Shown: positions 940-41,311, counted from the first letter of the stretch. The stretch: DNA of 64,000 nucleotides from a virus (IMGVR_UViG_3300044731_001604:64001-128000); one strand, 5' to 3'. Numbers and translations: made by a program. The notes: generated from the letters alone by a model not told the origin.

Positions 940-1128
940 ATGACTAAGCGCGAATTGTCCGCATCTGTTTACATATTGGTTACTTTTATTATATGCTATT
1001 TTGCTTATGGTGTTTATCAGACAAAACAACAAATTTCTCAAGCTTGTGAAGATCAGTGCTACCCGGCGGATGTTAAAGACGCAGATATGCAATATTGTAA
1101 ATGTTTTTACAAAAAAGCTGGGATGTAA
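940..1128 (+). CDS. small membrane-anchored Cys-rich protein
   Basis: TM helix then C-x3-C...C-x-C; GAGG RBS. Confidence 0.6.
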   Translation: MTKRELSASVYILVTFIICYFAYGVYQTKQQISQACEDQCYPADVKDADMQYCKCFYKKAGM

Positions 1129-1301
1129 TGGTTAAAAGAGAGCGCATTAGTCTTGGTCTTAATGGTAAAATAAGTTTAGTAATCGGCGATCAAGTCGGAT
1201 ACGATCTATTAAATCATTTGTACACGAAGCTCTATAAAGATTTAAACTATAGTATTGCAATTAAACTACGTTCATACTTATACGAGAAACCCCAAAAATG
1301 A
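1128..1301 (+). CDS. KRxQ tetrad-repeat microprotein family member (MVKRER...)
   Basis: TAATG-coupled start at 1128; hydrophobic residue roughly every 4th position. Confidence 0.55.
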   Translation: MVKRERISLGLNGKISLVIGDQVGYDLLNHLYTKLYKDLNYSIAIKLRSYLYEKPQK

Positions 1302-1495
1302 ATAAGAGAGATCAACACACCATTTCATTTGATTATGAGCTGAGGACAGTATTTCATAATTATTTTTCAACACAAATGCATGGCGATCTTACAAGAGATG
1401 TGTGGATGGAAATTTGGGAAAAACTCGCCTACCAACTAAAAGATAATATGAAAGATAAAGTTAAAGACGTAATTAAGGACAGAATTTCAAAATGA
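1298..1495 (+). CDS. KRxQ tetrad-repeat microprotein (MNKRDQ...)
   Basis: conserved N-terminus, 65 aa, 4-residue periodicity. Confidence 0.65.
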   Translation: MNKRDQHTISFDYELRTVFHNYFSTQMHGDLTRDVWMEIWEKLAYQLKDNMKDKVKDVIKDRISK

Positions 1496-2382
1496 AAAAG
1501 TTTTATGTATTTGATGTTTCAAATCTATTCTATCGTGGTATCTATGGATCTCAATTAACAACGTCTGAAGGTCGTCCTGTACAGGGATTGCACGGATTCA
1601 TCCAAATTTCTCAAGGGATTATAAAAGATCACAAGCCGGATTATATGCTATTTGCATTAGAGGGCGGCAACCAGCTCAGAAAAAGCATCGACCCGAACTA
1701 TAAAGCAAACAGACCTCCACTTGAGGAAGATATCAAATGGCAAAAAGATTTATTACCTGAACTAATATCTGCTATGGGATATCCAAGTTGGTCTAGCCGT
1801 GGGTTTGAGGCTGATGATGTAATTAATGCTATGGTTAAATTAGGACAAAAGCAAAATCTTGAAGTTGTTATAGTAAGCAGCGATAAAGATTTTAATTGTT
1901 TATTGGGCGAAAATGTTTCTATGTATAATTTAGGTGCTGATAAATATGTCACGAGTCAATCCGTCTTAGAGAAGTACGGCATAACTACAAATCAATTCCA
2001 AGATTATCTGGCAATTGTTGGCGATACGGCAGATAATATCAAAGGCGTATCTGGAGTTGGACCAAAAGGAGCCGCCCAAGCTCTTCAGTCATTTGGTACA
2101 TTAGAAAATATATATAACAACATAGGAGCCCTAAAGCCTAGCCTAGCTAAGAAATTTTCTAATTCAATAGAAGACGTTAAATTGGCTAGGAGGCTAGTAG
2201 CATTGCATTGGCCATCGGACATACCTGAAGACTTAGACGTAACGCAATTTGCGTACGGTGAAGTAAATGCCGATAAGCTTAAACCATTGCTTAGAATGTT
2301 AGAATTCAGAGACTTTGAAAAAATATTTTTTGGCGCACAAATTCTTATCCTAAACGGTATAGAATTTGGAACAAGAAAGTGA
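1492..2382 (+). CDS. 5'-3' exonuclease / flap endonuclease (PolA N-terminal-like)
   Basis: motifs D-x-SN, YKANR, FEADD, SSDKD, GDTADNIKGVSGVGPKGA (helix-hairpin-helix). Confidence 0.92.
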   Translation: MKKFYVFDVSNLFYRGIYGSQLTTSEGRPVQGLHGFIQISQGIIKDHKPDYMLFALEGGNQLRKSIDPNYKANRPPLEEDIKWQKDLLPELISAMGYPSWSSRGFEADDVINAMVKLGQKQNLEVVIVSSDKDFNCLLGENVSMYNLGADKYVTSQSVLEKYGITTNQFQDYLAIVGDTADNIKGVSGVGPKGAAQALQSFGTLENIYNNIGALKPSLAKKFSNSIEDVKLARRLVALHWPSDIPEDLDVTQFAYGEVNADKLKPLLRMLEFRDFEKIFFGAQILILNGIEFGTRK

Positions 2383-2431
2383 TTGAAAATTATTAATTAT
2401 CTGTTACAATGACAACTGTGGAGGAACTAAA

Positions 2432-2806
2432 ATGAGACAAGTGTTAATAGAAAAAAATGAATTGATCAATGAGATAAGTGGGTCTAAAATTAAATTTGAG
2501 GTAAACGATATTGAAATCTTGCCGTTTTCGATTGATAAACACGGCGTGATGGTTAGATTTCCTTTTTCTGTCAAATCATTGTCTGGTGGAAAATTAGATT
2601 TAGACTTCTCGTTACCAAAAGATCTTGTTTCTAAAGGTGTTTGCCTAATGGGTGCTTATTGGGAAAATAATGAGATAACTGCATATTTAACAAGCACCTT
2701 AGATAAGGTTGAAGTTGAAAAGAATGACGTGTTTCTAATCGCCACTCTAATTGAAGTAGTTTATTTTAGACAGATCTCTAAGGAAGTGTCTGAGATACGG
2801 GAATAG
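2432..2806 (+). CDS. possible degenerate dUTPase-fold protein
   Basis: spacing of LVSKGVCL...EI...L...VEKNDVF resembles trimeric dUTPase but catalytic motifs absent; GGAGG RBS and TTGAAA-16-TACAAT promoter. Confidence 0.35.
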   Translation: MRQVLIEKNELINEISGSKIKFEVNDIEILPFSIDKHGVMVRFPFSVKSLSGGKLDLDFSLPKDLVSKGVCLMGAYWENNEITAYLTSTLDKVEVEKNDVFLIATLIEVVYFRQISKEVSEIRE

Positions 2807-2814
2807 TATTTTAA

Positions 2815-3210
2815 TTATTTTAGTGCTTGTACAATACCAAGAACAGTCGCGATTGCACCGACTAGCCAAATAATGGCTTTTATGCTTATAGAGACCATGC
2901 TTACATGGTCTTCAATTGGCTCCATTCTCTCTTCTAAGAGAGCAGTTCTCTTCATGTGTTCTCTTAAGTTTTCTTCTTGCTTATCTAATAAAACATTATT
3001 TTTTGCTAAAGTTGTGTTAATGTCCTGCAAAGATCTGCTGATATCTGTGATCTCTCTAGCCATCTCAGAATCTGCATCAAAGTGGGCCTCAAGAAGGGTC
3101 GTTTGTTTTACGACAGAATTTGAAATCTCACGTAATTCATCGTGAAACTGATTTTGCATGTCAGTTTGTTTTTGATCTAGAAGTTCTATGCTTCTTCTTA
3201 CGTCATCCAT
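2815..3210 (-). CDS. coiled-coil protein with C-terminal TM helix (XhlA/holin-like)
   Basis: long heptad region then IKAIIWLVGAIATVLGIV; late motif upstream at 3252-3259. Confidence 0.55.
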   Translation of the reverse strand: MDDVRRSIELLDQKQTDMQNQFHDELREISNSVVKQTTLLEAHFDADSEMAREITDISRSLQDINTTLAKNNVLLDKQEENLREHMKRTALLEERMEPIEDHVSMVSISIKAIIWLVGAIATVLGIVQALK

Positions 3211-3254
3211 TTCAATTACCTTTACTAAAACCCTAATACCTTACAATAAGTAGA

Positions 3255-3575
3255 TTAGGTATTAATATTATCGTTTTCAGAGGTATTTTTCTCTTTTTCT
3301 TCTTTATTTGTACCTTCTATGCGGTTACTGCCATTAATCCACGTTCTTCCGAAGTGTAACCCAGCGGAAGCATAGAAGAATTGTAGGGCCTGATTTACGT
3401 CTATTTTAAGGTCTAGGCCGTATTTTCCCACAATACCAATAATTACTAGCAAACTGCTTATAACAACTAAAGTTAGGCTTTCGCTTGCCCTACCCTCATC
3501 CCTAACCATTGGAATTGGAATTCCCTTAGAATTCATATTATTTATTATTTGTAACCATTTATCTTTTAATTTCAT
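3255..3575 (-). CDS. putative holin
   Basis: two hydrophobic segments, charged C-terminus, next to XhlA-like gene in late island. Confidence 0.5.
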   Translation of the reverse strand: MKLKDKWLQIINNMNSKGIPIPMVRDEGRASESLTLVVISSLLVIIGIVGKYGLDLKIDVNQALQFFYASAGLHFGRTWINGSNRIEGTNKEEKEKNTSENDNINT

Positions 3576-3587
3576 TTTAATTATCCT

Positions 3588-5714
3588 TTAATATATCTCT
3601 CGCCATTGTAATCCAGCTGATATATTTGTGGCTTTTGTATCAATATTTTTAACAATTATGACATAAACTTCCGAGTTAGTAGAATCAAAATTTTGCACTA
3701 TATAGTTCTTTTTAGCCGAACTTGGAATTACTGCATTTGAATCGCTTCCAGCCTTACTTCCGCCTTGTGACGCAGATGCTGCAAACCCAACGCTTAGTAT
3801 GTCTGCATTTGTATATCCAGTCGCATTAGCTAGATATTCAACGCCACTTTCAGAGTTAGTACTGGTCCACACTCCAGCTCCACCTGTTAAGTTAGACGCA
3901 TTTTGTAATTTTGCTATAGAAAATTGAACGTTACCAGAATCAGTGAAAACTGTAACTTGTCCTAGTCTAGCTAACATACGATTTAAATATGTTTTATAAT
4001 TATTTTTCAATCTAATTGCTAATATTGGTAAAGTTTGACCTGTGCCCAAAAGTCTTGGTGTGGGACTTGCAAGCGCCCAATCAATTCCAGCCTCAACATA
4101 TCCGCCTTCACTAACAACTGTACTACAAATTTGATCCATATATGCACCAGTTGTAACTCCGGTGTTAAATATTTCGCAGCGAACTGGCAAATTTGGATTA
4201 CTCATATAAACTGTAGTAAGATTATTTTCGCCATCAAAATGATGCGCCTCAATATATTTACCCTCATGAGAAAACCCAACCCTGACTCTTCCCACGCCAA
4301 GCCATTGAAAATCTATAAAAAGCAACTGAGTTTTTGTAATATCTAAGTTTAAAGAACTAATTCCAGTTCCATCGCACTTGTCAACATTCCAATTTAACTG
4401 AGAAACTCTATTTTCATTGACGGCACCATTAATATAGCTTCTTAAGACAATATTTAAGGTTCCGTTTCCGGTTTGTTCAAAGTAAATTCCATTATTATCA
4501 TCAAACAGCCCAGTTCTTTTTGTCACCCCTGAAGTACTTGAATAAAAATTAAAGGATGACATTATTAGCTGGCTTTTTCCTGGCATATAATGATGATAGC
4601 ATTTGGTCTGGTGTATCGCCTTACTATTAACATCACTGCTGGTAGTCAATCTCGCGCATGCTTTATTTGATTGAAATGAAATAGTTCCACCATTTAATGT
4701 ATAGTCTATGAAATTTGGGTCTATTCCGTAGAGATGTTTATAGTCTCCAAGGGTATACGGCTCGCTCACTCTTTGTCTTGCAAAAGCATCTAGTGTGCCG
4801 ACCCCAGGAGTTGTAAAAACAGATCCGGATACTACCCACGGATTTGTTCCTTGATTTGCAGTAACTGTTCCGTTTACAGTTTGAGTTGCCGGGAAATTAC
4901 CAACATCAACTGTTCCGTTTACAGTTTGAGTTGCCGGGAAATTACCAACATCAACTGTTCCGTTTACAGTTTGAGTTGCCGGGAAATTACCAACATCAAC
5001 TGTTCCGTTTACTGTTTGTGTAGCTGGGAAATTACCAACATCAACTGTTCCGTTTACTGTTTGTGTAGCTGGGAAATTACCAACATCAACTGTTCCGTTT
5101 ACTGTTTGTGTAGCTGGGAAATTACCAACATCAATGGAAGAGTTTAAAAAATATACGTCTAACCCAATATCAGTTCCAACAGTATGCGATGTTAAAAAAT
5201 TGGTTCCGTCTCCAAGACGAACAGAATCATTTGTATGTGTAAGATCAACGTCTAGGCTAACTTCTGGCTTAATTGTAATATTTGCATCAACAGCAAGTCT
5301 ATTAACTCCATTTTCATCTGCTACAAATTCTGCATACTGACCATATTTATCTACGAGGATTGATCTTTTTGCATTTATTGGATCTTCTGCATGACTAGCT
5401 CTTTCAAAAATCTCCATTCCCATCGGATTTCTTTGTTGTTCCCAAGCAGTTAAGGTTCCGCCGGAGTACGAAGTAGGATTGGAAAATGTGGCCATGTCTT
5501 TTCCAACTGGACCGACTTGAATCTGAGTGTCAGAGATAACTCTCTTAATTTCAAGCTCTAGTTGTTCTAAGCCTGTTTTATTTAAATATACCAATTGTTT
5601 AGGATGTAATAATCCTTGAGTATCTGGTACTGTAATTATATGATTTGAAACTTGAATCGGATTGGCTAAAAATGTAGGCCACCGTCTATCAAACGACGAA
5701 GTTAACTTGCTCAT
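3588..5714 (-). CDS. virion structural protein (fibre/lectin-like) with internal 15-aa repeats
   Basis: C-terminal DAFARQRVSEP...YMPGKSQ...FQWLGVGRVRVG beta-sandwich domain seen in phage structural proteins; 6x VDVGNFPATQTVNGT; ATG 5714 preferred over TTG 5735. Confidence 0.65.
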   Translation of the reverse strand: MSKLTSSFDRRWPTFLANPIQVSNHIITVPDTQGLLHPKQLVYLNKTGLEQLELEIKRVISDTQIQVGPVGKDMATFSNPTSYSGGTLTAWEQQRNPMGMEIFERASHAEDPINAKRSILVDKYGQYAEFVADENGVNRLAVDANITIKPEVSLDVDLTHTNDSVRLGDGTNFLTSHTVGTDIGLDVYFLNSSIDVGNFPATQTVNGTVDVGNFPATQTVNGTVDVGNFPATQTVNGTVDVGNFPATQTVNGTVDVGNFPATQTVNGTVDVGNFPATQTVNGTVTANQGTNPWVVSGSVFTTPGVGTLDAFARQRVSEPYTLGDYKHLYGIDPNFIDYTLNGGTISFQSNKACARLTTSSDVNSKAIHQTKCYHHYMPGKSQLIMSSFNFYSSTSGVTKRTGLFDDNNGIYFEQTGNGTLNIVLRSYINGAVNENRVSQLNWNVDKCDGTGISSLNLDITKTQLLFIDFQWLGVGRVRVGFSHEGKYIEAHHFDGENNLTTVYMSNPNLPVRCEIFNTGVTTGAYMDQICSTVVSEGGYVEAGIDWALASPTPRLLGTGQTLPILAIRLKNNYKTYLNRMLARLGQVTVFTDSGNVQFSIAKLQNASNLTGGAGVWTSTNSESGVEYLANATGYTNADILSVGFAASASQGGSKAGSDSNAVIPSSAKKNYIVQNFDSTNSEVYVIIVKNIDTKATNISAGLQWREIY
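4863..5132. repeat. 6 x 45-bp in-frame tandem repeat
   Basis: units 4863-4907 through 5088-5132; three identical type A then three identical type B units differing at synonymous sites. Confidence 0.95.
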
Positions 5715-5838
5715 AATAAAATTTCCCCAACCCAATGAAATTATTCATTTATGCCCCACGGCATTACTAAACCAATGTCTAGCTAATTAAAGATTAGGGT
5801 ACTATTATTTTTTAATTTTAATTAATGTAATTAATGAT

Positions 5839-6036
5839 TTAAATGCGTTTTGAAGTCTGAATATATCTTTGCGCCTGTTCTTTGGTTTCTTTATATAAAA
5901 CATCAAATAACATACTGCCGAGATTTGAATATGATTTTGAATAAATACTATAGGATGGCATGTTGCAATATTTTGAATACAGCCTGCTTCTGAAACTAGT
6001 AAGGTGTGCGCTCCCCAATGCTTCTCGTTTTTCCAT
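5839..6036 (-). CDS. KRxQ tetrad-repeat microprotein (MEKREA...)
   Basis: 65 aa, family N-terminus, third of tandem trio. Confidence 0.55.
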   Translation of the reverse strand: MEKREALGSAHLTSFRSRLYSKYCNMPSYSIYSKSYSNLGSMLFDVLYKETKEQAQRYIQTSKRI

Positions 6037-6037
6037 C

Positions 6038-6229
6038 TTATTTGCCTATTTTTTCTTCATATAATTGTTGGTGAGTTTGATCTCTTAATTCGTACCAGAG
6101 CGTGATGTCTTTTAATTGCTCCCAAATTTGGGCATACATTTGATCTGATATTGTGGAATGGAGCCACATATACAGTTCGTCCCTAAATCTCTCTCTTAGT
6201 TTATCCCGAAACTGCTCTCTTTTTCTCAT
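6038..6229 (-). CDS. KRxQ tetrad-repeat microprotein (MRKREQF...)
   Basis: FRDK LRER FRDE LYMW LHST ISDQ MYAQ IWEQ periodicity. Confidence 0.7.
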   Translation of the reverse strand: MRKREQFRDKLRERFRDELYMWLHSTISDQMYAQIWEQLKDITLWYELRDQTHQQLYEEKIGK

Positions 6230-6421
6230 TTATGTATTTTTCTTTTGGGTTTCGTGACAGATTTGTTCACATATTTGATCAATCAATTCTGCATTGATTT
6301 CATATATTTCTTCCCAAGTCCCTTCTAAAACATTATCAATAACGTCACCATATACGTTTCTATCAATCATTTCATATAAATGATCTTTGATTTTTCTATA
6401 TATCTGATGACGTTTTTTCAT
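6230..6421 (-). CDS. KRxQ tetrad-repeat microprotein (MKKRHQI...; start revised)
   Basis: ATG 6421 just after vWA gene stop; family N-terminus. Confidence 0.7.
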   Translation of the reverse strand: MKKRHQIYRKIKDHLYEMIDRNVYGDVIDNVLEGTWEEIYEINAELIDQICEQICHETQKKNT

Positions 6422-6428
6422 TGTATGC

Positions 6429-7535
6429 CTACAATCTGATAACTTTGCCGAAATCGCCTGGTGGATTTTGTGACCCAACTCCTACCCAAATAAAGGGAAT
6501 GCCTGGATTTGTCGGCGTGTCTGCGCAATCAAAATCACCGAAATATATAATAGCGTCACATTTTCTTTTTACGCATTCGTCAATTGCTGGTTGATATGCA
6601 GTTCCACCGCTACCAAATCTTTTTGTTAATACACCAGGTTTAGCTTTTCCACCTTTAATTACATCAACTTTTTGCACTTCAGAATCTGCGTGGACTAAGT
6701 AAGTGATCGTAGTATTTTTTGCTATAGATGATATTTCATTTAAGAATGATGAGTAAGCTTCGTCCGAGATTGACCCTGACGAATCAGTACATACACCAAG
6801 TATTAAATTTCTTTTCTTTTTCTTGCCTGGTTGATCTAGCTCAAATCTTCTGTGAGTTTTAAGGCGTGTGCTTTTAGTTTGGACGTCCCTAGCCGATGAA
6901 ACAAAGTTTCTTAAGAGCTGCTTCCAGCTAATTGTCGCTGGTTTATTTAAATTACCAATGATAGACTCTAATCCATTCGGAACAAGCCCACCAGATGCCT
7001 TTATGGCTTGATTAACCTTGTCTTTAATAATCACTCTATCTAAATCGCCTTTTTCGCTTTCGTTCATTTCATCATGATCGCTCATCCACGATGCTACTTC
7101 TTGCTTATCTGCTACTTCTGCCATTTCTTTGTAATAGTATTCCCAAGACTCTTTTGGCAAAAGTTTCTTCTTACACATTTCTTCTGCCCACGCAAGCGTA
7201 ATGCAATCTGATGGTAAATCAGAAATGTGTTGGTTAATAGCGCAATCTTTTGCTATGTTTGTTAATTGATGATTAAGGATATCTCCAGCCCTATTGCCGA
7301 TATGATCTAAAACCGCGTGTAAAACTTCGTGTTTTAACACAGCAATCTGTTGAGCATCGGTTAATGTTGCAAACCAGTCTGGATTTACTTTAAAGTAAAG
7401 CTCTTTGTTCTTAATACCTACGCAAGCTCTTTCAATTTTTGGATCATCATAAACGACTCTAGAGCCTAAAATAAAATTAGCATAGAATCGTTCGGTATTA
7501 ATTAACGTAAAAATTGGCTTTTCTAGTAAACCCAT
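6429..7535 (-). CDS. DUF2201-type metallopeptidase + vWA domain protein
   Basis: HEVLH zincin motif, NIAKDCAINQ, vWA DSSGS ... GGT ... YFGD. Confidence 0.88.
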   Translation of the reverse strand: MGLLEKPIFTLINTERFYANFILGSRVVYDDPKIERACVGIKNKELYFKVNPDWFATLTDAQQIAVLKHEVLHAVLDHIGNRAGDILNHQLTNIAKDCAINQHISDLPSDCITLAWAEEMCKKKLLPKESWEYYYKEMAEVADKQEVASWMSDHDEMNESEKGDLDRVIIKDKVNQAIKASGGLVPNGLESIIGNLNKPATISWKQLLRNFVSSARDVQTKSTRLKTHRRFELDQPGKKKKRNLILGVCTDSSGSISDEAYSSFLNEISSIAKNTTITYLVHADSEVQKVDVIKGGKAKPGVLTKRFGSGGTAYQPAIDECVKRKCDAIIYFGDFDCADTPTNPGIPFIWVGVGSQNPPGDFGKVIRL

Positions 7536-7558
7536 GGAAATCTCCTATTATAATAATA

Positions 7559-8617
7559 TTATGCTTTTTCAAACTGAGCTGCGTATTCGGGGTCATTTAA
7601 GAGATCATTTTTTCCATGGAAATTGCCAAGTTTTCCTAATCCGACAAAGGCTTTCATAGCTAACTCAATTGGGATATCTAGTAGAAATTGCTTTAGATTA
7701 TCAATAGACATATCTGCTGAAAGGAGGTGAGGGTTGCTCTCTAGTTTAGCAAATAATTCATCAATTGGCTGATTAAGAACATCCATGCGAACATTGCTAG
7801 CACTTGCCGTGATATCTAATACTTTATTTCTAGCAATTTTTTTGTAGTTTTTAAGAATGTCATTAAGGCTTAATCCTGTTTCTTGCTTAGCTTTGTGTGT
7901 TAATCTAGCCGCTGCTGCAACCGGCCCTACAATACCTGAATATAATTCATATCTTAGACTATCATCTAATCCTTCTTCTAAATCAAGGGCGCCAACGCTT
8001 TCAAGCCAAGCTCTAGGGTCTCTTGTAACCATTGACATATCAAGTCTTCCGCCTTCTTTTGCAGTAAGATTTAACATCTCAGGTTGTTCACGAATAAAAG
8101 AAGCAAGGCTAAATAATCCTCTGCTTTCTGCATAAACTAACCATTCTTCAGTTGTAGGAGTGAAATCAATATGACAGAAACGAGATAGCCAAGCTGAGTC
8201 GCTTGTATCTGTTGTAGTGAATCTTTCTGATTGGTAGTTTCCAGCAGCAGCGATACGCCAACCCGGAGGTAATTTGTGTGTATGAATAGTTCCATTTTGC
8301 ACAAAAGAATACATTGCTTGAATTACATCAGTCGGCGCTCTATTTAATTCATCTAAAAAGATAATTCCTTCACCCTCAGTAGGAAACCATTTAGGTTTTG
8401 CATGATAAACTTCGCCGTTTTCGCCTTTAACTAAGAGGCCAACTAAATCGCCCACATCTTGAGTAGCCGTGTGTAAAACTCTTAATTGTAAGTTGTTCTT
8501 TACGCAATACTGATTCCAAAACTGTGTCTTTCCAACACCTTGACTGCCCCAAAAGAATGGAACAATTCGGTTTTTTAATAGAAAAGGAATAGCTTTGTTG
8601 ATTTCAGAAATATTCAT
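7559..8617 (-). CDS. MoxR-like AAA+ ATPase (start revised to ATG 8617)
   Basis: Walker A GSQGVGKT, Walker B IIFLDELNRA, AAGN, SRF; GGAGG at 8623-8627. Confidence 0.9.
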   Translation of the reverse strand: MNISEINKAIPFLLKNRIVPFFWGSQGVGKTQFWNQYCVKNNLQLRVLHTATQDVGDLVGLLVKGENGEVYHAKPKWFPTEGEGIIFLDELNRAPTDVIQAMYSFVQNGTIHTHKLPPGWRIAAAGNYQSERFTTTDTSDSAWLSRFCHIDFTPTTEEWLVYAESRGLFSLASFIREQPEMLNLTAKEGGRLDMSMVTRDPRAWLESVGALDLEEGLDDSLRYELYSGIVGPVAAAARLTHKAKQETGLSLNDILKNYKKIARNKVLDITASASNVRMDVLNQPIDELFAKLESNPHLLSADMSIDNLKQFLLDIPIELAMKAFVGLGKLGNFHGKNDLLNDPEYAAQFEKA

Positions 8618-8636
8618 CTGGACCTCCGTTTCAATT

Positions 8637-8707
8637 ATCATAACATTTTATTTTCGGTACGTCAACCTAAAAAAACTTATTGCAAATTGTTTTATTTGTG
8701 CTACATT
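8637..8707. promoter_or_regulatory. divergent sigma70-like promoter pair
   Basis: minus: TTGACG(8665-8660)-17-TATGAT(8642-8637); plus: TTGCAA(8680-8685)-16-TACATT(8702-8707) with TG extension. Confidence 0.65.
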
Positions 8708-8740: not shown

Positions 8741-9367
8741 ATGGATAACAAAATTACTGAACTTACCCCAGAACAAGAAGCGTTATTTCCAGCTTATTTG
8801 GAAAAATTCAGAAATATCGGCCTATCAACTACTCCAACAAATAGACAAAAGGCTGAAGAGGCTTTAACAAAAGCTTATGCTTATTTATCTAAAACTGATC
8901 CTAATTTATGCGTTCCAAATCCAGAAATCATCTGGGCAGAAAGCCCAATGGCAGGCGCAGTTCTTGCTGCTCAACACGCTAAAGGCGATCTTAACGTAAC
9001 AGATTCAGAAGTGCAAGATCAAGCTTGGCGAGCTTCTTATGGTTCATTCGAGGCATACTGGGTGAGTACTTATTCATTTATCTGCAATGAGCTTCCAGTA
9101 GAAAAAGACGAGCTTATCGACATCGTTATGGAAATCATCAATGAGTGCGGCGTGTACTGGACATATAAAGATTTGGTTATCCTTACTCCAAAGCCAACTT
9201 TTATCGGAATGAAAGACGGAAAATTACACAACTCTAAAGGGCTAGCTTTAGCATATCCAGATGGAAACGGAATCTATGCTGTAAATGGTTCTAGAAAAAA
9301 CTCTTTAATTGAAGCTACGTTAGAACAAAGAGCTAACAGCTTAATTGGTTCAACTTCAGAAGATTAA
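8741..9367 (+). CDS. DUF6745-like protein lacking long internal repeat
   Basis: LTPEQEALFP...GLST.PTNRQKAE...IIWAESP...YG.FEAYW...GKLHN..G.ALAYPDG..IYA.NG. Confidence 0.75.
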   Translation: MDNKITELTPEQEALFPAYLEKFRNIGLSTTPTNRQKAEEALTKAYAYLSKTDPNLCVPNPEIIWAESPMAGAVLAAQHAKGDLNVTDSEVQDQAWRASYGSFEAYWVSTYSFICNELPVEKDELIDIVMEIINECGVYWTYKDLVILTPKPTFIGMKDGKLHNSKGLALAYPDGNGIYAVNGSRKNSLIEATLEQRANSLIGSTSED

Positions 9368-9390: not shown

Positions 9391-9582
9391 ATGAGGCAAA
9401 GAGATCAGATAAATAGAATAAGCAACAAGTATTTTGATCATATTGACGGCGACCTTTATAATGAAAATTTTCATTTAATATCAGATTATCTCCAATACAT
9501 TTTATACATTGAGCGCTCACCAGTCGATAACATTGTTGACGAGCTATCCACATATATTGAGACTATGAATTTGGGGAATTGA
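9391..9582 (+). CDS. KRxQ tetrad-repeat microprotein (MRQRDQI...)
   Basis: GAGGG RBS before ATG 9391; family N-terminus. Confidence 0.65.
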   Translation: MRQRDQINRISNKYFDHIDGDLYNENFHLISDYLQYILYIERSPVDNIVDELSTYIETMNLGN

Positions 9583-9587: not shown

Positions 9588-9785
9588 ATGAAAAAACGCA
9601 AGCAGATAGACGGAATCCTTTTTACGATTATTGAAAACAATCTTTACCATCAGGTATACTACGATGTCAATTCAAAAAATCGAGAAAAGATCTATACAGG
9701 AATTTACGAACTGCTTATGGATGAACTAAATGTTAAGTTAATAAATATTATTAACGATTTTATTAAATCGAGAAGAGCATCATGA
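9588..9785 (+). CDS. KRxQ tetrad-repeat microprotein (MKKRKQI...)
   Basis: family N-terminus, periodicity. Confidence 0.7.
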   Translation: MKKRKQIDGILFTIIENNLYHQVYYDVNSKNREKIYTGIYELLMDELNVKLINIINDFIKSRRAS

Positions 9786-9979
9786 AAAAAAGGGTTCAGA
9801 TACCTGATTTTTTAAATGAAAACATATGCGATCATCTTAGATATAGCATATATGTTCAAGTTGATGATACTATTTGGCGTGTAATACTATCTGAACTATA
9901 TATAAAACTTCATGATAAGCTTAACAATACGTTAATTAATGAAACCTGGGATTATATTAAAATGGGGCCAAAAATATGA
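9782..9979 (+). CDS. KRxQ tetrad-repeat microprotein (MKKRVQI...)
   Basis: IPDF LNEN ICDH LRYS IYVQ VDDT IWRV ILSE LYIK LHDK LNNT LINE; ATGA coupling. Confidence 0.75.
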   Translation: MKKRVQIPDFLNENICDHLRYSIYVQVDDTIWRVILSELYIKLHDKLNNTLINETWDYIKMGPKI

Positions 9980-10182
9980 AAAAGCGCATCCAATTTAATG
10001 ATCCTCTATATAATATATTCTATCCTAAAATTAGAGATAGAGTTAGGCTTGAAATAAAATATAAAACTTTTGAAAAGATAAGCAAGAGACTCACTGGTGA
10101 GCTTAATTCGCAATTCTGGGGCCAAATTGGATATCAGATTGGTAAATACATCGAGGATAGGAGTTCAAGTGAGAAGGCGTGA
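9976..10182 (+). CDS. KRxQ tetrad-repeat microprotein (MKKRIQF...)
   Basis: FNDP LYNI FYPK IRDR VRLE IKYK ... FWGQ IGYQ IGKY. Confidence 0.75.
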   Translation: MKKRIQFNDPLYNIFYPKIRDRVRLEIKYKTFEKISKRLTGELNSQFWGQIGYQIGKYIEDRSSSEKA

Positions 10183-10351
10183 GCAGATTACTGATCAGCT
10201 TAGGGATAATGTTTGGGAATCTTTAAACGGGCAGCTCCAATATCAAATTGAACCAGATATCTATAATAGGCTGCATGACGTTCTGTGCGAAGAAAAGAGA
10301 TACAGACTCATAAGCCAATTATATTTATATTTAAGGACTAGGGTTAACTAA
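10169..10351 (+). CDS. KRxQ tetrad-repeat microprotein (GTG start, MRRREQI...)
   Basis: AGGAG RBS 10159-10163; ITDQ LRDN VWES LNGQ LQYQ. Confidence 0.7.
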   Translation: MRRREQITDQLRDNVWESLNGQLQYQIEPDIYNRLHDVLCEEKRYRLISQLYLYLRTRVN

Positions 10352-10555
10352 ATGAGGAAACGAGAACAAATCACTAGTCAATTTTCATATCAACTTTGGG
10401 ATAGACTTAGAGATGACATATACGTGCAACTGTATTCCTCATTTAATGAGGACATACACAATAAACTCAGGGACAATCTTTGGCTTGAGCTGCAAATATT
10501 ATTGTACGATAGAACGTATAGCTATTTGCAAAACTATATAGGCAAGAAGCAATGA
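10352..10555 (+). CDS. KRxQ tetrad-repeat microprotein (MRKREQI...)
   Basis: ITSQ FSYQ LWDR LRDD IYVQ LYSS FNED IHNK LRDN LWLE LQIL LYDR. Confidence 0.75.
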   Translation: MRKREQITSQFSYQLWDRLRDDIYVQLYSSFNEDIHNKLRDNLWLELQILLYDRTYSYLQNYIGKKQ

Positions 10556-10728
10556 AGAAGAATAAAATTATAGAATTTAAATTAAGAGTTAGATTAAAAG
10601 AACAAATCACAAAATCTTGTGGTTCAGATTGTATCAGCACGTCAAGAAAAAAGCTAAGAGAATTATCATCTTACGACTTATATAAAGCGGCTGTTGGAGA
10701 AATTGTCTCTGCTTCTGTGTCAAAATAA
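10552..10728 (+). CDS. small protein, possible divergent tetrad-family member
   Basis: 58-aa ORF (below track cutoff), ATGA-coupled, MKKNKII...LKEQI. Confidence 0.45.
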   Translation: MKKNKIIEFKLRVRLKEQITKSCGSDCISTSRKKLRELSSYDLYKAAVGEIVSASVSK

Positions 10729-11188: not shown

Positions 11189-11407
11189 ATGAGGAAAAGA
11201 GAGCAGCCTAATAATTTGTTTTTTAACCAACTTGTCATAAAGCTTAGGGATCAAGCTGAAAACCAACTTTGTGATAATTTAAGTTATCAACTACATGATA
11301 ATCTTAAGCTTTACAAGATTTGTGAACAGTTTCGCAATACAGCTCTTAATATTATTCGTACACAATCATTAAATGATATTGATAATAAATTAAAAAGAAA
11401 GGTTTAA
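11189..11407 (+). CDS. KRxQ tetrad-repeat microprotein (MRKREQP...; start revised)
   Basis: ATG 11189 follows stop of upstream gene; LRDQ AENQ LCDN LSYQ LHDN. Confidence 0.7.
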   Translation: MRKREQPNNLFFNQLVIKLRDQAENQLCDNLSYQLHDNLKLYKICEQFRNTALNIIRTQSLNDIDNKLKRKV

Positions 11408-11778: not shown

Positions 11779-12000
11779 ATGAAGAAACGTAAGCAAATAT
11801 CAGATCATATAAGTAATGATTTAAAGTTTGAGCTTTTTGATAGGCTTGAAGAGCAGGTTGATGGTGAACTTTTTGATCAAATTGATGAGGAACTTTTTGA
11901 GTACGTTACAGGTGGAAGCTACATTGACATAGATGTAAACTTAATAAAAGAACAGTTGTTTTCTCATATTGAAAATATAAATGGCCGAAAGGTTGGTTAA
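11779..12000 (+). CDS. KRxQ tetrad-repeat microprotein (MKKRKQI...)
   Basis: ISDH ISND LKFE LFDR LEEQ VDGE LFDQ IDEE LFEY. Confidence 0.75.
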   Translation: MKKRKQISDHISNDLKFELFDRLEEQVDGELFDQIDEELFEYVTGGSYIDIDVNLIKEQLFSHIENINGRKVG

Positions 12001-12001
12001 A

Positions 12002-12208
12002 ATGAAAAAACGAGAAGGAATGAAGATTTTGCCGAAAGATCAAATTAGTCCTGAAGTTTGGGATAGAATCGTTAGCCAGCTTGAGAATCGTCTTAACGGC
12101 CAAAATAAAGCCATAGAGGCGCCAAAAAAAGAAGGCTTTGTAAGATTTCTTAAATATAAGACATACTTTAATGCAATTAAAAATCTATTTAATAAGAAGG
12201 GCGGTTAA
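12002..12208 (+). CDS. KRxQ-related microprotein (MKKREG...)
   Basis: ISPE VWDR IVSQ LENR LNGQ; start revised to ATG 12002. Confidence 0.55.
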   Translation: MKKREGMKILPKDQISPEVWDRIVSQLENRLNGQNKAIEAPKKEGFVRFLKYKTYFNAIKNLFNKKGG

Positions 12209-14168: not shown

Positions 14169-14417
14169 ATGAGAGCTAGAGATCAGATTGGTCACTTCAC
14201 AAGTAGCCAGTATATTCATTTTTTAAAACAAATAAATAAATCAAATTGTTTTGGCACAGTGAGTGTTGCATCTGTGTTTGTTGGCCATCGAACAATCCAA
14301 GTTAAAGCTGGAAGTTTTATATTAGACAAGCTTTCCACTATCGCTGATGAATGCCCAAGTCTAAGACATCATATAATGGACCACATAATAGAAAATTCTT
14401 ACGGAAACTGCAAATAA
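14169..14417 (+). CDS. KRxQ-related microprotein (MRARDQI...)
   Basis: family-like N-terminus; last gene of early operon. Confidence 0.5.
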   Translation: MRARDQIGHFTSSQYIHFLKQINKSNCFGTVSVASVFVGHRTIQVKAGSFILDKLSTIADECPSLRHHIMDHIIENSYGNCK

Positions 14418-34378: not shown

Positions 34379-34379
34379 A

Positions 34380-36143: not shown

Positions 36144-36241
36144 AATTAATAGATTAAGGTTCTGTCCTGTCTATGTATAAATAGACAAATAGATCTACAA
36201 AGTCTATGTATAGAGAGACTTTTGTATATAGGTGCAGGATT

Positions 36242-36472: not shown

Positions 36473-36529
36473 CTCTCTGAAATCAGTACATCCTAACTCC
36501 TATCTATAGTCAATGGTGCTTATCTAGTA

Positions 36530-37417
36530 TTAGATGTTGCTAGTAAACATATTTTGTCCATAATATGTTTTTAATTTCTTCATAAGCCCTTGATATCTTT
36601 GATCTAATGTAGTTATTTTTTGAGTTAACACATTTATCATTTGGTCATTGATGCTTTGGCTCATGGCATCAACTGAAAGAGATTGAGACGCCGTTCTATA
36701 CAAAGGAATAAGATTCTCAGCAAGTAACATAGCTGCTGCGCATCCAATTGCTTCATTTACTATTACAGGAAGTTGTCCAGCCGGGTCCATAAGTCCACAT
36801 TCATATTCAACTGTCCAAAATGACGGTATAAACGCACCAACGCCTAAAATTGATAATAATGTAGCGCCGGCTTGAGATGCACTAGTACTGAACGAAATAG
36901 CTCCATAAGCTGGAGATATCGGAATAACGTTTAAAAGGCCCCTTGTTGCGTTAGACGGGTCTACCCATGAGTTTGGTATAGTGTATATTGCTCCACCAGA
37001 TGGGAACTCTTTATCTGCCTCTAAAACGCCTTTTTCGTCAACAACTTGATCGTAGTTTGCTGATGCCAAGGCAAGTCTTACAACTCTTTTAATTGGCTTG
37101 TTCGGTATTTCAAGATGAATGAACTGTTTGTATAGAGCGGCATCAAACGGTAATCTTGAGCGCATTACTTTTGTTTGTATTTGAATTTTAGAGTCAAATT
37201 GAAGTCTAGCCATACCACGTTTGACAAAATCCTCTAGATCTTCTGATTGAATCTTTTCTTTTGTCATAGGTGATATCATTGGTATACCAAAGAAAAACCG
37301 TCTACGGAAAGTATCTGCATCTAATAATGGCTCTACTTCGGCCATTATGCCAGAAGATTCTATTACATTCTGGGGAAATGCTGCGCCGACCGGTTTTTTA
37401 CTATCTGTAAAGTCCAT
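36530..37417 (-). CDS. putative head-tail adaptor
   Basis: position; SQSLSVDAMSQS motif typical of SPO1/Twort-like adaptors. Confidence 0.6.
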   Translation of the reverse strand: MDFTDSKKPVGAAFPQNVIESSGIMAEVEPLLDADTFRRRFFFGIPMISPMTKEKIQSEDLEDFVKRGMARLQFDSKIQIQTKVMRSRLPFDAALYKQFIHLEIPNKPIKRVVRLALASANYDQVVDEKGVLEADKEFPSGGAIYTIPNSWVDPSNATRGLLNVIPISPAYGAISFSTSASQAGATLLSILGVGAFIPSFWTVEYECGLMDPAGQLPVIVNEAIGCAAAMLLAENLIPLYRTASQSLSVDAMSQSINDQMINVLTQKITTLDQRYQGLMKKLKTYYGQNMFTSNI

Positions 37418-37426
37418 TTTAAATTC

Positions 37427-37834
37427 CTAACAATGAAATCGGCTAGAATCTGTGCTAGAAACTTTGATTCTGCCATCTAGTAAAATTGTTTCTGAAATTC
37501 CATTATCTGTCAAAATTGCCTTAATAGCACCAGAGATTTTATCTGTTGATAGCAAAGTGACTTTAAATATTGATCTGTCGTCATTAGGATATACCATTGT
37601 AGCATATCTTGTGATTTGTAAGGCTTCGTCAAGATTTTCAAACATTACTTGTAGGGTAGCTGATGAGCTTGGCAAAAATCTTAAATTGTCACAATCTTCG
37701 CAACTAGTTGAATTCTTTTGAATAATACGAAAATATAAGTCAGTTTGATTGCCATTAACAACTTCCAGAGTTTTGATTTCACAAAACGAGTTATAACTTG
37801 TAACGCTATCAAGCGATTTTAGCATTTTTTTCAT
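37427..37834 (-). CDS. late structural hypothetical protein
   Basis: late motif 37852-37859. Confidence 0.55.
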   Translation of the reverse strand: MKKMLKSLDSVTSYNSFCEIKTLEVVNGNQTDLYFRIIQKNSTSCEDCDNLRFLPSSSATLQVMFENLDEALQITRYATMVYPNDDRSIFKVTLLSTDKISGAIKAILTDNGISETILLDGRIKVSSTDSSRFHC

Positions 37835-37867
37835 AAAACCTCACTCTGGATAGATTAGGTGCCTATC

Positions 37868-38665
37868 TTACTTTTTTGAGGCAGTTTTTTTCTTAGCCTT
37901 GCTTTTAGTTTTCTTTGTATCTTCTTTTTTGGCAGCTTCTTCTTTCTTAGCAGCCTCTTCTTTTTTAATAGCCTCTGTTAAGCCATTAATAAGCCCTTGC
38001 TCTAATTTAGATTTTTCTTTCTGCTTTCTTTTTTTCAAAGCCTTTTGAGCTTTAGTTTGATATGGCAAAACGGTAGATAGATACATTTCACCAGGACTAT
38101 AATTTAATCTAGGGATTGCAACGTGGTCAACTAAACCCAAAGTTTGAGCTTCTTGAGCAGTTACGGTCCAATCAGTGTTATGTTTTGAATGGATCATTTT
38201 AGATAAGAACTCTGGTTTTTTACCCATATCTTCAGCTAGATTTTTAATCATTAACGAATTGATTGATTCATAAGTTTTTGCTGACTCTACGATATCGCTT
38301 GCTTTACCACCAGCCATACCAGATACTTGATGGATCATGATCTGAGCATCTTTTGATGCAAACCTAAATCCTTTAGTTCCTGCTGCTAATAATAATGCCC
38401 CACAGCTAAAAGCCATACCAACAGCAACTGTTGCAACTGGTTTGCTTGATGATTTAATTAAATCTCTCATTGCAGTCAAAGAGAATACTTCTCCACCATA
38501 GCTTGAAATATAGACGACTATAATCGGGATATGTGGATTTTTTTCTAATTCTGAAAATTGCTCATAAAATTGTACGGTAGCATCTTGGTCAAAATGCGTA
38601 ACCCAAATTTCGTTGCTGTGTCTACCTGCGCCGCTGAGATCAATTATGTGTCCAGCATTTTTCAT
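37868..38665 (-). CDS. clpP: ClpP-like protease (S14) with Lys-rich tail
   Basis: YISSYGGEV, GMAFSCG (Ser), IMIHQ (His), D...AQEA..LGLVD. Confidence 0.85.
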   Translation of the reverse strand: MKNAGHIIDLSGAGRHSNEIWVTHFDQDATVQFYEQFSELEKNPHIPIIVVYISSYGGEVFSLTAMRDLIKSSSKPVATVAVGMAFSCGALLLAAGTKGFRFASKDAQIMIHQVSGMAGGKASDIVESAKTYESINSLMIKNLAEDMGKKPEFLSKMIHSKHNTDWTVTAQEAQTLGLVDHVAIPRLNYSPGEMYLSTVLPYQTKAQKALKKRKQKEKSKLEQGLINGLTEAIKKEEAAKKEEAAKKEDTKKTKSKAKKKTASKK

Positions 38666-38951
38666 AAGTTCTCCATATTTATTTGTTTTGATTCGCTGCT
38701 TAGTTTTTTATCACTTAATGTTAAAGATATTATTTCGCCGACCAATTTTTCTGGCGTTAGCCATACTGAATCGCCTGCTGTTAATCTGAGAGACTCAGGA
38801 TACCCGGTTTTTGCTATTGAGCATCTCCAAACTGGTCCATCATCTACCGCAAAGGTACCTACTAGAACTCCTGAAGTTTCCGAATATATTGGGAAAGTTT
38901 CAAAAGCTGATGACCATCCGTCAAAGGACGTTGTAAATTGTACAAGGTTAC
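38662..38951 (-). CDS. hypothetical protein
   Basis: ORF in ClpP operon; start approximate. Confidence 0.5.
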
Positions 38952-39202
38952 TCATCTGTAACCTCATTTCCGTCTCTATCCAATTTGTAGATAGACATTA
39001 TTTTTTGTATAGCATTTTCATTTAAAAACCATGCCAAAGCTTGGATCGCGGCAATGATTAGAACAACTTTTGAATATATTGGCTTGTCTGATGGAATTGT
39101 AAAGTACCAAAGAACTAACGCAATTGCTAGAAATCTTGAGAATTTACTAGCACTTACAGTTTTTTTAAGTTCTTTTTTAGCCAAATCTTTAAATTCTATC
39201 AT
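38948..39202 (-). CDS. small two-TM membrane protein
   Basis: two hydrophobic helices; GAGG RBS. Confidence 0.55.
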   Translation of the reverse strand: MIEFKDLAKKELKKTVSASKFSRFLAIALVLWYFTIPSDKPIYSKVVLIIAAIQALAWFLNENAIQKIMSIYKLDRDGNEVTDE

Positions 39203-39229
39203 TTTACCTCTTACAATATCTATACCACA

Positions 39230-39766
39230 TTATCCATTAGTTTTATTAGTGTTTTCTTTATATTTTTTATTTAATTCTTTTCTTTTTTGTTTAACTTGCG
39301 CATTACTTGGATATTCATCGTGTTCATAATAATGGTAATATATAAATATATCTAGTTCGATGTCAACTTTTATTTTCCAAGTTGGAATTTTAATGCCAAT
39401 CTCATGCGCAATGGTTTCTCTATATACAGAGTCATCCCTCTCTTCTTTAAAGACAGCATATCTTTCTTTTTTAGTTAGAGGTGAACCGTCATGATTTTTA
39501 TTTAAGATTCGAGATAACTCGCTAGAGAACGATCTTTCTTGATAAACCCAGGCCATGTGATGAGCTAGCTCATGCAAGAAGTTTAAAATCATTTGAGTTT
39601 TACTTTGATTTTTCCAAGCAAATAGGGTAAGCTCGACAGTATTGTCTTCTGCAACTGTCCATGTAGCGCCTGCAGAACCAGGCTTATGTTTTTTAAAAAA
39701 CAGCTTGATTCCCAGACCTTCTGCGTATTTTATTAATCTTTCGATTTCATTATCTCTTATGCCCAT
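39230..39766 (-). CDS. HExxH metallopeptidase (ImmA/IrrE-like)
   Basis: LHELAH motif plus downstream Glu; late motif 39795-39802. Confidence 0.65.
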   Translation of the reverse strand: MGIRDNEIERLIKYAEGLGIKLFFKKHKPGSAGATWTVAEDNTVELTLFAWKNQSKTQMILNFLHELAHHMAWVYQERSFSSELSRILNKNHDGSPLTKKERYAVFKEERDDSVYRETIAHEIGIKIPTWKIKVDIELDIFIYYHYYEHDEYPSNAQVKQKRKELNKKYKENTNKTNG

Positions 39767-39834
39767 ATCGTATTGCCGCCTTGTGATCCTATTAAGATTA
39801 GGAATAAGACCGTTGTTTAAAAACTTTAATTAAA

Positions 39835-40416
39835 TTAAACACTTAGCATTACTCTTGCTGCCTCTAAACACAATAAAGCATCGTATTTCGCCGTGTGCAG
39901 CTCTCCCTTTTCTATATCTATTTTTAGGGCCTGAGCTAGCTTGCCCAAAGAGAGATACGTGTTCTTAGGCAACTTCCCTTGTATCTTTAATGCTAGCCCC
40001 AGAGTCACTGTATCTAATGAGTGGTAGCTTATATAATTATTCCACAAAGATTCTTTTAGCAATTGATTAACAATAAATGATATGTCAAATTTTACATTAT
40101 GTCCCATTGGAATCAATTTATTTGTACCGTTATTAGACCTACTTTGAATAAATGTATATAGCGCTCTAGATGCATCTGTTAAAGATAGGGCCTCTGCGTC
40201 ATGTTTTACTAGATCAATTTTATTTACCTTCATGGCCCCAGCAGTGACGTTATATGGGCTGTTGTTATCTGGTTTAATTTTAATATCTAATTCACTATGG
40301 ATAGTCATATTTCCGTCTGAATTTCTTGTAACGATAGCTGCATACATAGACAATAGGCTATTAATCGTTGAATCTAATCCACCAGTTTCAGTATCTAACA
40401 ACAAAAACGTTTCCAT
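39835..40416 (-). CDS. DEDDh 3'-5' exonuclease (DnaQ-like)
   Basis: DTETGG, GHNVKFD, LDT, HTAKYDA. Confidence 0.88.
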   Translation of the reverse strand: METFLLLDTETGGLDSTINSLLSMYAAIVTRNSDGNMTIHSELDIKIKPDNNSPYNVTAGAMKVNKIDLVKHDAEALSLTDASRALYTFIQSRSNNGTNKLIPMGHNVKFDISFIVNQLLKESLWNNYISYHSLDTVTLGLALKIQGKLPKNTYLSLGKLAQALKIDIEKGELHTAKYDALLCLEAARVMLSV

Positions 40417-40417
40417 T

Positions 40418-41089
40418 TTATTCCCCAAGTAAGGCATCTACTTGCCCATAAAGATAATTTAAAGATCCTTTATTATCTAGTATAGCATCAAAATTATAAT
40501 TATCCAAGTCTCTTTCTGATGAGTCTATATTAGAGGTAGTATCAAATCTATTTACTCTTACAAATTTAATTGTACTTGAAAAATGTTCAAGAAGAGTATT
40601 GGCTTCGTTAATAAACCTTAAATCTGTTATTACTATGTTTCCAGACATAGTTTTTATTTTATTAATTCCGACGTCTACCCAATAATTTGGGTTAACAGAT
40701 CTGGCCATGGCTCCTTGTATTAAAAGGAGTGACCTTGGCGTGTGAAATAGCTTTTTCATGCCGTCTGCGAAAAAGCCCTCCATTGATCCGGTTGTTTTAT
40801 TTAGCATTATGTTAACTGCTTTTTTGTTATCGCTTGTTTTAAAGTGTTGAACCAGTTCATTGCAGACTAATTTTGAAACTCCGTCTTGCGGTACGACTGG
40901 ATATTTTTCCAGCGCCGAGTCTTTCAATAGTCTATCGTCAAAATAATTTCTTGGAATTTGAAAAGTTTTTGATGTAGCATCTTTGAGGGTATCTGCAAAC
41001 GATACTCTAGCATAGCCATAATTGTTAACCAGATAGTCGGCCACTGTATCTTTACCAGATCCTGCCCACCCACTTAATGCTATAATCAT
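40418..41089 (-). CDS. deoxynucleoside monophosphate kinase
   Basis: GWAGSGKDT, FADTLK, TPR, DLRF.NE, SE..LD. Confidence 0.88.
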   Translation of the reverse strand: MIIALSGWAGSGKDTVADYLVNNYGYARVSFADTLKDATSKTFQIPRNYFDDRLLKDSALEKYPVVPQDGVSKLVCNELVQHFKTSDNKKAVNIMLNKTTGSMEGFFADGMKKLFHTPRSLLLIQGAMARSVNPNYWVDVGINKIKTMSGNIVITDLRFINEANTLLEHFSSTIKFVRVNRFDTTSNIDSSERDLDNYNFDAILDNKGSLNYLYGQVDALLGE

Positions 41090-41119
41090 GCCAACCTCTG
41101 TTTATTTAAAAATTTTATT

Positions 41120-41311
41120 TTATTTTTTATTTATAATGTGAAAATATATTTGCATGAAGAGCGTGGTATAATGCTCTTCGTATATTTTATACCTAATCCC
41201 ATAATAAATATCTTTGCTACGTATGTTTTCATCAACTTGATGATGAGTTTGTATCTTCAATTGTTCATAAATGAAGTTGCTAAAATTTTCAAATTGCTCG
41301 CGCTTTTTCAT
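41120..41311 (-). CDS. KRxQ tetrad-repeat microprotein (MKKREQF...)
   Basis: family N-terminus; IYEQ LKIQ THHQ VDEN. Confidence 0.7.
   Translation of the reverse strand: MKKREQFENFSNFIYEQLKIQTHHQVDENIRSKDIYYGIRYKIYEEHYTTLFMQIYFHIINKK

Follow-up and report, generated by a model that had tools for sequence, protein, structure and literature searches.

A family of phage microproteins that probably derives from the repeat tract of DUF6745 proteins

The 157,572-bp IMG/VR virus record IMGVR_UViG_3300044731_001604 encodes a family of microproteins of 56-82 aa, most of which have a short conserved head and a body made of four-residue units (tetrads). We analyzed bases 64001-128000 of this record (64,000 nucleotides, hereafter the window) and followed the family into the rest of the genome. 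The open reading frames (ORFs) are real genes of one paralogous family with about 45-48 members. Their repeat is very probably the same as, and derived from, the repeat tract of DUF6745 proteins, and the window also encodes a DUF6745-like core that lacks this tract. We lean towards the reading that the microproteins are a detached, diversified 'stalk' library that would work with the repeat-less core. Coordinates are window positions unless marked as genome positions, which are used for genes outside the window.

A family of paralogous microprotein genes

A preliminary description of the window had proposed about 16 copies and listed 17 ORFs, every one of which is present at its reported start and encodes 57-82 aa. 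A motif scan of the whole genome, together with a hidden Markov model (HMM) built from these 17 copies, identified a second array of 31 back-to-back plus-strand genes (56-82 aa; genome 34866-40794), 23 kb upstream of the window. The profile comparison suggested in that description was carried out, and the copies recognize each other across separately trained arrays. The HMM of the window copies finds 27 of the 31 second-array ORFs at E < 0.1, none of which was used in training, and the reverse HMM, built from the 31 outside copies only, recovers 14 of the 17 window ORFs at E < 1e-3. An HMM of the bodies only still recovers 10 of the 17 (E < 0.01). The earlier count therefore stands for 14 copies in the window and is too low for the genome, where about 48 genes were found. 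ORFs 12002 (E 0.21) and 14169 (E 0.58) have only the tag in common with the family, and ORF 10552 is without support from the independent HMM (E 3.4). In total the family occupies 9,453 nt, or 6.0% of the genome, with 14-17 members in the window and 31 in the outside array.

The members in the window and the genes adjoining them are as follows (E values are from the HMM built from the 31-gene outside array).

1128-1301, plus strand: family member, 57 aa (MVKRERI...); E 1.8e-6, tetrad occupancy 0.92; ATGA overlap with the next member
1298-1495, plus strand: family member, 65 aa (MNKRDQH...); E 1e-4, occupancy 0.93
5839-6036, minus strand: family member with degenerate tag, 65 aa (MEKREAL...); E 7e-4, occupancy 0.60
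6038-6229, minus strand: family member, 63 aa (MRKREQF...); E 1.1e-7, body-only E 1.3e-7
6230-6421, minus strand: family member, 63 aa (MKKRHQI...), directly downstream of the vWA gene; E 8e-6
6429-7535, minus strand: zincin-like metallopeptidase and vWA protein (DUF2201_N / DUF2201); Pfam 3e-14 and 1.2e-16, phrog_1314 1.4e-54
7559-8641, minus strand: MoxR-like AAA+ ATPase; Pfam AAA_5 23.9 bits (cut-off 22), phrog_1297 2e-50
8741-9367, plus strand: DUF6745-like core, 208 aa, stalk-less and C-terminally short; PF20530 32.8 bits (cut-off 27), phrog_31813 1.8e-8
9391-9582, plus strand: family member, 63 aa (MRQRDQI...), first of a seven-gene chain; E 6.5e-5
9588-9785, plus strand: family member, 65 aa (MKKRKQI...); E 2.7e-9
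9782-9979, plus strand: family member, 65 aa (MKKRVQI...); E 1.8e-10; a one-residue variant (P0135) is in a public database
9976-10182, plus strand: family member, 68 aa (MKKRIQF...); E 1.3e-11
10169-10351, plus strand: family member, 60 aa, GTG start (VRRREQI...), AGGAG 6 nt upstream; E 2.3e-13
10352-10555, plus strand: family member, 67 aa (MRKREQI...), the most typical copy; E 1.2e-13; helix predicted by AlphaFold2
10552-10728, plus strand: doubtful member at the chain end, 58 aa (MKKNKII...); E 3.4, body-only E 26; linked by position and ATGA coupling only
11189-11407, plus strand: family member, 72 aa (MRKREQP...); E 2.3e-4
11779-12000, plus strand: family member, 73 aa (MKKRKQI...), acidic body; E 1.3e-10
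12002-12208, plus strand: tag-only member, 68 aa (MKKREG...), divergent body; E 0.21, body-only E 0.028
14169-14417, plus strand: tag-only ORF, 82 aa (MRARDQI...), non-periodic body; E 0.58, best period 4.6, occupancy 0.47
41120-41311, minus strand: isolated family member, 63 aa (MKKREQF...), upstream of a deoxynucleoside monophosphate (dNMP) kinase gene; E 4.2e-7

The copies are old, with a best pairwise identity of 42% and BLASTP matches at E < 1e-3 in only 58 of 1,128 pairs. Their isoelectric points (pI) span 4.3 to 10.1. In a related phage, a 10.4-kb contig preserves the array as a colinear run of 32 small genes, one of them an orthologue with 89% identity, and thus the individual paralogues are maintained.

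No family matching the microproteins was identified in Pfam, PHROGs, NCBIfam or PADLOC. A word-index homologue search returned the phage's own copies only, or nothing. Neither IMG/VR nor the JGI metagenomes yielded anything of use when scanned with one protein at a time, be it a microprotein, the core or the product of a flanking gene. A feature search of the atlas found only sub-threshold clusters of hypothetical viral proteins (score 0.89).

Two further window ORFs, at 38038 and 20067 (both minus strand), have a KKRKQ-like head and a Lys/Glu-rich, non-periodic body. They were rejected as members, as the family HMM recovers neither. Also rejected was the array as a single long repeat gene that has been broken, given that every unit begins with a start of its own and each ATGA junction changes the frame.

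A four-residue period on a single helix

The hydrophobic tetrad of the preliminary description is borne out by a periodicity peak at 4.0 residues (mean spectral power 4.56 vs 1.03 +/- 0.25 in 500 shuffles, z ~14). Power at 3.5-3.6 residues, the period of a canonical left-handed coiled coil, is at background (0.9-1.25), and neither a heptad nor a hendecad signal appears in the spectrum. From residue 7 onward most copies hold a fixed phase that does not slip, with up to 100% occupancy of the hydrophobic position over 13-15 tetrads. The other three positions had been described as almost unrelated between copies, which does not hold: the pooled tetrad has L/I/V/F at position 1 (74% hydrophobic) and clear biases to Y/R at position 2, D/N/S at position 3 and Q/K/E at position 4.

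Given the alignment of 48 copies, AlphaFold2 predicts the 10352 copy to be one continuous helix (residues 2-66) with a predicted local distance difference test score (pLDDT) of 93.7. Together with the variable bodies, this agrees with the earlier view of small, diversified helical proteins. On a helix of 3.6 residues per turn, a 4.0 period would wind the hydrophobic stripe by about 40 degrees per tetrad. A homodimer prediction for two chains of the 10352 copy scored 0.01, which is evidence neither way.

Right-handed coiled coils have 11- or 15-residue repeats (3.67 or 3.75 residues), as in the tetrabrachion right-handed coiled coil (RHCC). The microproteins share with them a hydrophobic spacing above 3.6 residues, which implies a right-handed stripe, but at their period of 4.0 the drift is about 10 degrees for every residue, steeper than known coiled coils allow. 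The tetrabrachion structure (1fe6) appeared only as a trivial helix match. A right-handed supercoil, as suggested in the preliminary description, would be a speculative arrangement. An unbroken 4.0 period over up to 60 residues is beyond known coiled-coil geometry, and a solved structure would be informative in itself.

Such a stripe, winding round the helix, could not be buried on one flat partner and would point to multi-helix packing. The helices might therefore be self-assembling structural material: by pairing or bundling they would form a fibre, a lattice or a condensate within the infected cell or on the virion. The arrays adjoin tail genes, and coupled translation would give near-equal amounts of neighbouring products. 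We nevertheless assign this possibility a low probability, as 48 products with a best identity of 42% and pI values of 4.3-10.1 are unlike the needs of a repetitive structure, and the heptad or hendecad signal is lacking.

The microprotein repeat and the DUF6745 tract

The profile of 48 copies, searched against 1.84 billion representative proteins, gave 601 matches at E <= 1e-3. The best are proteins of 400-500 aa with 2-8 matching stretches each. DUF6745 N- and/or C-domains (PF20530/phrog_31813) are present in 134 of the best 150 matches, and several of the other 16 are the phage's own copies or a microgene beside a DUF6745 gene. The matched proteins consist of an N-module (LTxEQEA...DSP[LM]), 27-75 uninterrupted tetrads of the form L/V-x-[DSNG]-Q, and the C-terminal DUF6745 domain. 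The microproteins likewise have an uninterrupted period-4 pattern, with the unit [LIVF]-[YR..]-[DNS]-[QKE] and the same position preferences. These preferences correlate at r = 0.88, 0.63, 0.81 and 0.79 between matched tetrad positions of microproteins and DUF6745 tracts, vs -0.27 to 0.20 off the diagonal, and hhalign gives a probability of 97% (E 6e-11). None of the 17 window copies has a PF20530 match above the gathering score. Thus, the correspondence is with the tract only, and the microproteins are not DUF6745-domain proteins. They lack the domain, are stand-alone genes with their own conserved head in about 48 copies, and are far more diverged than the near-perfect repeats of the fused tracts. 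They share with the tract proteins the four-residue unit with matching preferences at every position; moreover, a core heads one array and a fused form occurs in a related phage. We consider a common origin of the two repeats, with the microproteins derived from the tract, highly probable.

The core gene at 8741-9367 lies directly upstream of the seven-gene chain. It has PF20530 above the gathering score and the N-module via phrog_31813. In place of the 110-300 residues of tetrad tract in full-length relatives, the core has a stretch of about 10. The DUF6745 domain is also without its last third, and the PF20530 match covers only profile positions 8-88 of 206. The preliminary description had named DUF6745, MoxR and vWA proteins as potential partners. 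These neighbours are indeed present, but it had missed that the microproteins are the repeat of the DUF6745 tract and that the adjacent gene is without it. The microproteins do not belong to an already characterized family, as the matching DUF6745 is catalogued but uncharacterized.

In an AlphaFold2 model of a full-length DUF6745 protein the N- and C-modules are confident (pLDDT > 90), and the tract forms a protruding helical hairpin (pLDDT 50-65) in which each arm is about as long as one microprotein. Searches with this model, using Foldseek against the PDB and a wide VIA-align search, returned nothing beyond generic matches to long helices (Z at most 6.6). An ARID protein, 23fj_R, found as a PDB sequence match of the DUF6745 profile (E 2e-14), was rejected because the match is to an M-P-G-Q low-complexity repeat.

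DUF6745 occurs in phages, prophage-like elements and cyanobacteria. Of 151 cyanobacterial genomes sampled, 15 encode PF20530, frequently more than once. The ESM-Atlas cluster nearest to the DUF6745 model is 81% viral, and another cluster consists of cyanobacterial fusions of DUF6745 to leucine-rich repeats (LRR). A literature search found no mention of DUF6745, PF20530, phrog_31813 or the repeat strings.

Split and fused forms in other genomes

Relatives were found via homologues of the vWA-metallopeptidase (48-51% identical) on three IMG/VR records. In one complete genome (G152, 55.9 kb; locus L019) the vWA gene is followed by five microgenes, whose heads read M[KR]RR.Q[IL], and then by a stalk-less core, an HNH-like gene, the MoxR-like ATPase and a microgene. 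Its core is 60% identical to the window core. Three further microgenes lie on the other strand, and the profile matches eight genes in total. Despite the rearranged order, vWA, MoxR, core and microgenes lie within 8 kb of one another.

A second complete genome (G153, 53.9 kb) has the vWA gene, an HNH-like gene and a stalk-less core, and no free microgenes. It encodes a second, short-form DUF6745 protein of 341 aa (L021:966-1991) with about 37 internal V-x-S-Q units, and therefore fused and stalk-less DUF6745 paralogues coexist in one genome. The adjacency of vWA gene and core recurs here; no MoxR gene was identified in the 9 kb examined, which stops at the vWA gene. The HNH-like gene lies inside the vWA/core/MoxR neighbourhood of both relatives (L019:11009-11659; L020:1175-1738) and is absent from the window locus.

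On an unrelated 2.9-kb metagenome contig (L009), a stalk-less DUF6745 gene (289 aa) is flanked by six overlapping microgenes (163-2317). All of these start with MIKIE[PT]QL and several end with LRKGFK; the conserved head thus differs between distant lineages (MKKRxQI vs MIKIEPQL). Gene callers merge these microgenes with out-of-frame 'GPAKGPA' readings of the 12-bp repeat. The split layout, a stalk-less DUF6745 gene with free tetrad microgenes within a few kb, was found in the window phage, in G152 and on L009. The repeat is thus found in two arrangements, within the DUF6745 protein or in stand-alone genes next to a protein that lacks it, and at least three lineages are involved.

In the window the AAA_5 ATPase adjoins the vWA protein (DUF2201 61.4 bits, DUF2201_N 53.7 bits), both on the minus strand. 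MoxR-vWA 'activase' pairs include CbbQ/CbbO and NorQ/NorD. The window pair is of the MoxR and zincin-vWA (DUF2201_N/DUF2201) type that is widespread in phages; it stands back to back with the core, and three family genes come after it. The phage pair has no known client, and any functional link to the core is putative. That the pair is involved with the helices is a weaker proposal.

Four of the five longer DUF6745 contigs examined are phage-like, with gene sets of DnaB, primase, PolA and lysozyme; RusA, ERF and integrase; or Acb5, PcfJ and dCMP deaminase.

The head, gene coupling and the origin of new copies

Translated in six frames, the window contains 19 instances of the motif [KR][KRQA]R.Q, and 12 of these directly follow an ATG or GTG that opens an ORF of 60-82 codons. 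Across the family, positions 1-7 read M-[KR]-K-R-[EKD]-Q-[IL]. Arg4 is present in 46 of the 48 copies and is encoded by AGA, AGG, CGA, CGC and CGT, from which we conclude that the tag is selected at the protein level, in agreement with the constant N-terminal tag of the preliminary description. A purely nucleotide-level signal was rejected on the same synonymous codons. Arg at position 2 uses AGR codons in 17 of 17 cases, vs 23 of 46 at position 4 (p = 1e-4), because codon 2 must begin with A where the upstream stop makes an ATGA junction. Part of the earlier 'basic' tag, at position 2, is therefore a by-product of gene overlap.

The K-R-[DE]-Q part of the head, with I/L next, is itself a tetrad in phase with the repeat lattice and resembles the lead-in of DUF6745 tracts (e.g., RRRDQ|L, LSRDQ|L). 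A short constant N-terminal tag on hypervariable small proteins from a variable phage locus is also the pattern of the T4 internal proteins. These carry a capsid-targeting sequence, are freed of the targeting peptide by the prohead protease and are present in virions. If the microproteins were packaged in this way, the head would be the targeting signal and the variable bodies would be injected with the DNA. This would be a considerable surprise: the tag is in register with the repeat, like the first tetrad of a DUF6745 tract; no cleavage motif for a protease was seen after it (by inspection only); the copy number is far higher; the arrays lie outside the head module; and in relatives the family is fused inside a non-structural protein, with whose tract it is homologous. 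Prochlorosins, a library of precursors of ribosomally synthesized and post-translationally modified peptides (RiPPs) served by one processing enzyme, also combine many small genes, a constant recognition end and a hypervariable remainder, possibly with one common partner here as well. The microproteins differ in a constant part of only 7 residues, helical repeat bodies, few Cys/Ser/Thr and the absence of a modifying enzyme.

Translational coupling, as proposed earlier, is real: an ATGA overlap is present at 27 of the 48 family junctions, and the gaps in the seven-gene array are 5, -4, -4, -14, 0 and -4. The stop of the member at 1298-1495 is overlapped by the ATGA start of a 5'-3' exonuclease gene (FEN-like, 1492-2382; exonuclease by Pfam). 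Thus, at least the microgene pair 1128/1298 is co-translated with a replication/repair gene. Promoter and terminator scans gave counts that match shuffle expectation, and provide no support for 'early operons' or back-to-back promoters. AAGG or GAGG is present within 16 nt in 33 of the 48 family members, and the K/R/G/E-rich C-termini of many copies coincide with the purine-rich ribosome-binding site (RBS) of the next, overlapping gene. The composition of the C-terminal tails may be partly a nucleotide-level constraint.

One member of the outside array (genome 36753-37001, 82 aa, (QLxx)n) consists of 16.5 copies of the 12-bp unit CAGTTGnnGnAT, which encodes Q-L-x-x. Flanking this microsatellite are two exact 33-bp copies of a gene junction (genome 36737-37019; L001:6737-7019), each comprising gene end, stop, RBS, ATG and head. 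The related contig has a gap of 194 nt, without a called gene, at the syntenic position. This member is likely a snapshot of how new members arise, and junction duplication followed by expansion of the 12-bp unit explains why the Q-[IL] of the head is in phase with the repeat.

The same member raises the question of whether the ORFs are a non-functional by-product, spawned by slippage-prone 12-bp repeats and junction duplications and persisting without selection; three of the listed ORFs are weak or tag-only members. We regard this as very improbable for the family as a whole. About 45 intact ORFs keep their length, start, coupling and position preferences although the DNA-level repeats have decayed, Arg4 is kept through synonymous codons, the array is colinear in a related phage, and the family makes up 6% of the phage genome.

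Genome setting

The record (GC 35.7%, CheckV completeness 98%) is from a tailed phage, with a 911-aa sheath that shares 36% identity with its counterpart in Myxococcus phage Mx1, by this comparison the nearest cultured relative; none closer exists. A tail-fibre-like ORF of 715 aa (3588-5735, minus strand), for which a Pfam scan gave no match, contains six near-perfect 45-bp tandem repeats (4863-5134, 98% matches) that encode VDVGNFPATQTVNGT.

Proposed role of the microproteins

We propose that in this phage lineage the tract was removed from the DUF6745 gene, which would have left a conserved core of 200-216 aa, and was re-encoded as a library of many separate microgenes, strongly diverged and translationally coupled. 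Further members would come from duplication of a gene junction and expansion of the 12-bp unit. The helices would act in trans with the repeat-less core, and possibly also with the MoxR-like ATPase and the vWA-metallopeptidase. In such a system the head M-[KR]-K-R-x-Q-[IL] would be the common attachment end and the variable body the specificity surface, and one core could form dozens of complex variants. The detachment and diversification of a stalk library for use with the core is the reading that we favour, if by no means strongly. For the narrower claim that the microproteins work together with the core, the chances seem to us not quite even. A full protein-level diversity system, in which one DUF6745 core takes up any of about 48 helices that share a docking head, the MoxR/vWA pair may load or exchange them, and new modules are minted by junction duplication and 12-bp expansion, is a tentative extension that we think somewhat unlikely.

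Several points weigh against the favoured reading. Four other DUF6745 loci (L003, L008, L016 and L017) are without MoxR/vWA neighbours, and the kinship of G152 and G153 with the window phage (vWA 48-51%) means that the MoxR/vWA synteny may be inherited rather than functional. The tract hairpin is predicted at low confidence, and Val occupies position 1 in one DUF6745 tract out of three; the native conformation of the tract is therefore uncertain. The similarity of the repeats could in principle be convergence on one structural solution, which is argued against by the adjacency in three lineages and by the gap in the core. In addition, several members are far from the core (1128, 1298, 41311 and the entire 31-gene array).

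This distance from the core, together with extreme diversification on a kept scaffold, is what would be expected of independent effectors, the view of the preliminary description: the helices would be tract-derived, each would bind a different protein of the host or of a rival phage, and the core would play no part. Elsewhere, DUF6745 genes are found among the small genes of accessory regions, in one case close to an Acb5-family gene, and cyanobacterial DUF6745 is fused to LRR binding repeats. However, a head that is specific to each lineage (MKKRxQI; MIKIEPQL in L009) is hard to square with unrelated partners, no anti-defence or defence family is matched, and the stalk-less core is conserved (60% identity) beside the microgenes. 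Independent effectors are in our estimate unlikely. The proposed library of helical binders is thus upheld as a diversified helical family, and its assignment to anti-defence or host takeover is unsupported by PADLOC, Pfam or PHROGs. The lack of a match to known anti-defence or defence families in these three collections is still compatible with such a role, although we think it an improbable purpose.

Implications

The phage devotes 6% of its coding capacity to about 48 single-helix microproteins of a kind usually missed by gene callers, and a route of gene birth, junction duplication with microsatellite expansion, is visible in one of the arrays. For DUF6745, a family that is widespread in phages and cyanobacteria and unstudied, the split forms provide a first anatomical handle: the variable tract appears to be a separable module, which evolution seems to have detached and amplified repeatedly. 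If the core and the library do act together, a single phage would make dozens of variants of one recognition complex. This would be a new viral route to diversify such a complex and a modular alternative to diversity-generating retroelements or invertible tail-fibre cassettes, and the helices would be candidate clients for the common, unexplained MoxR/vWA pair of phages.

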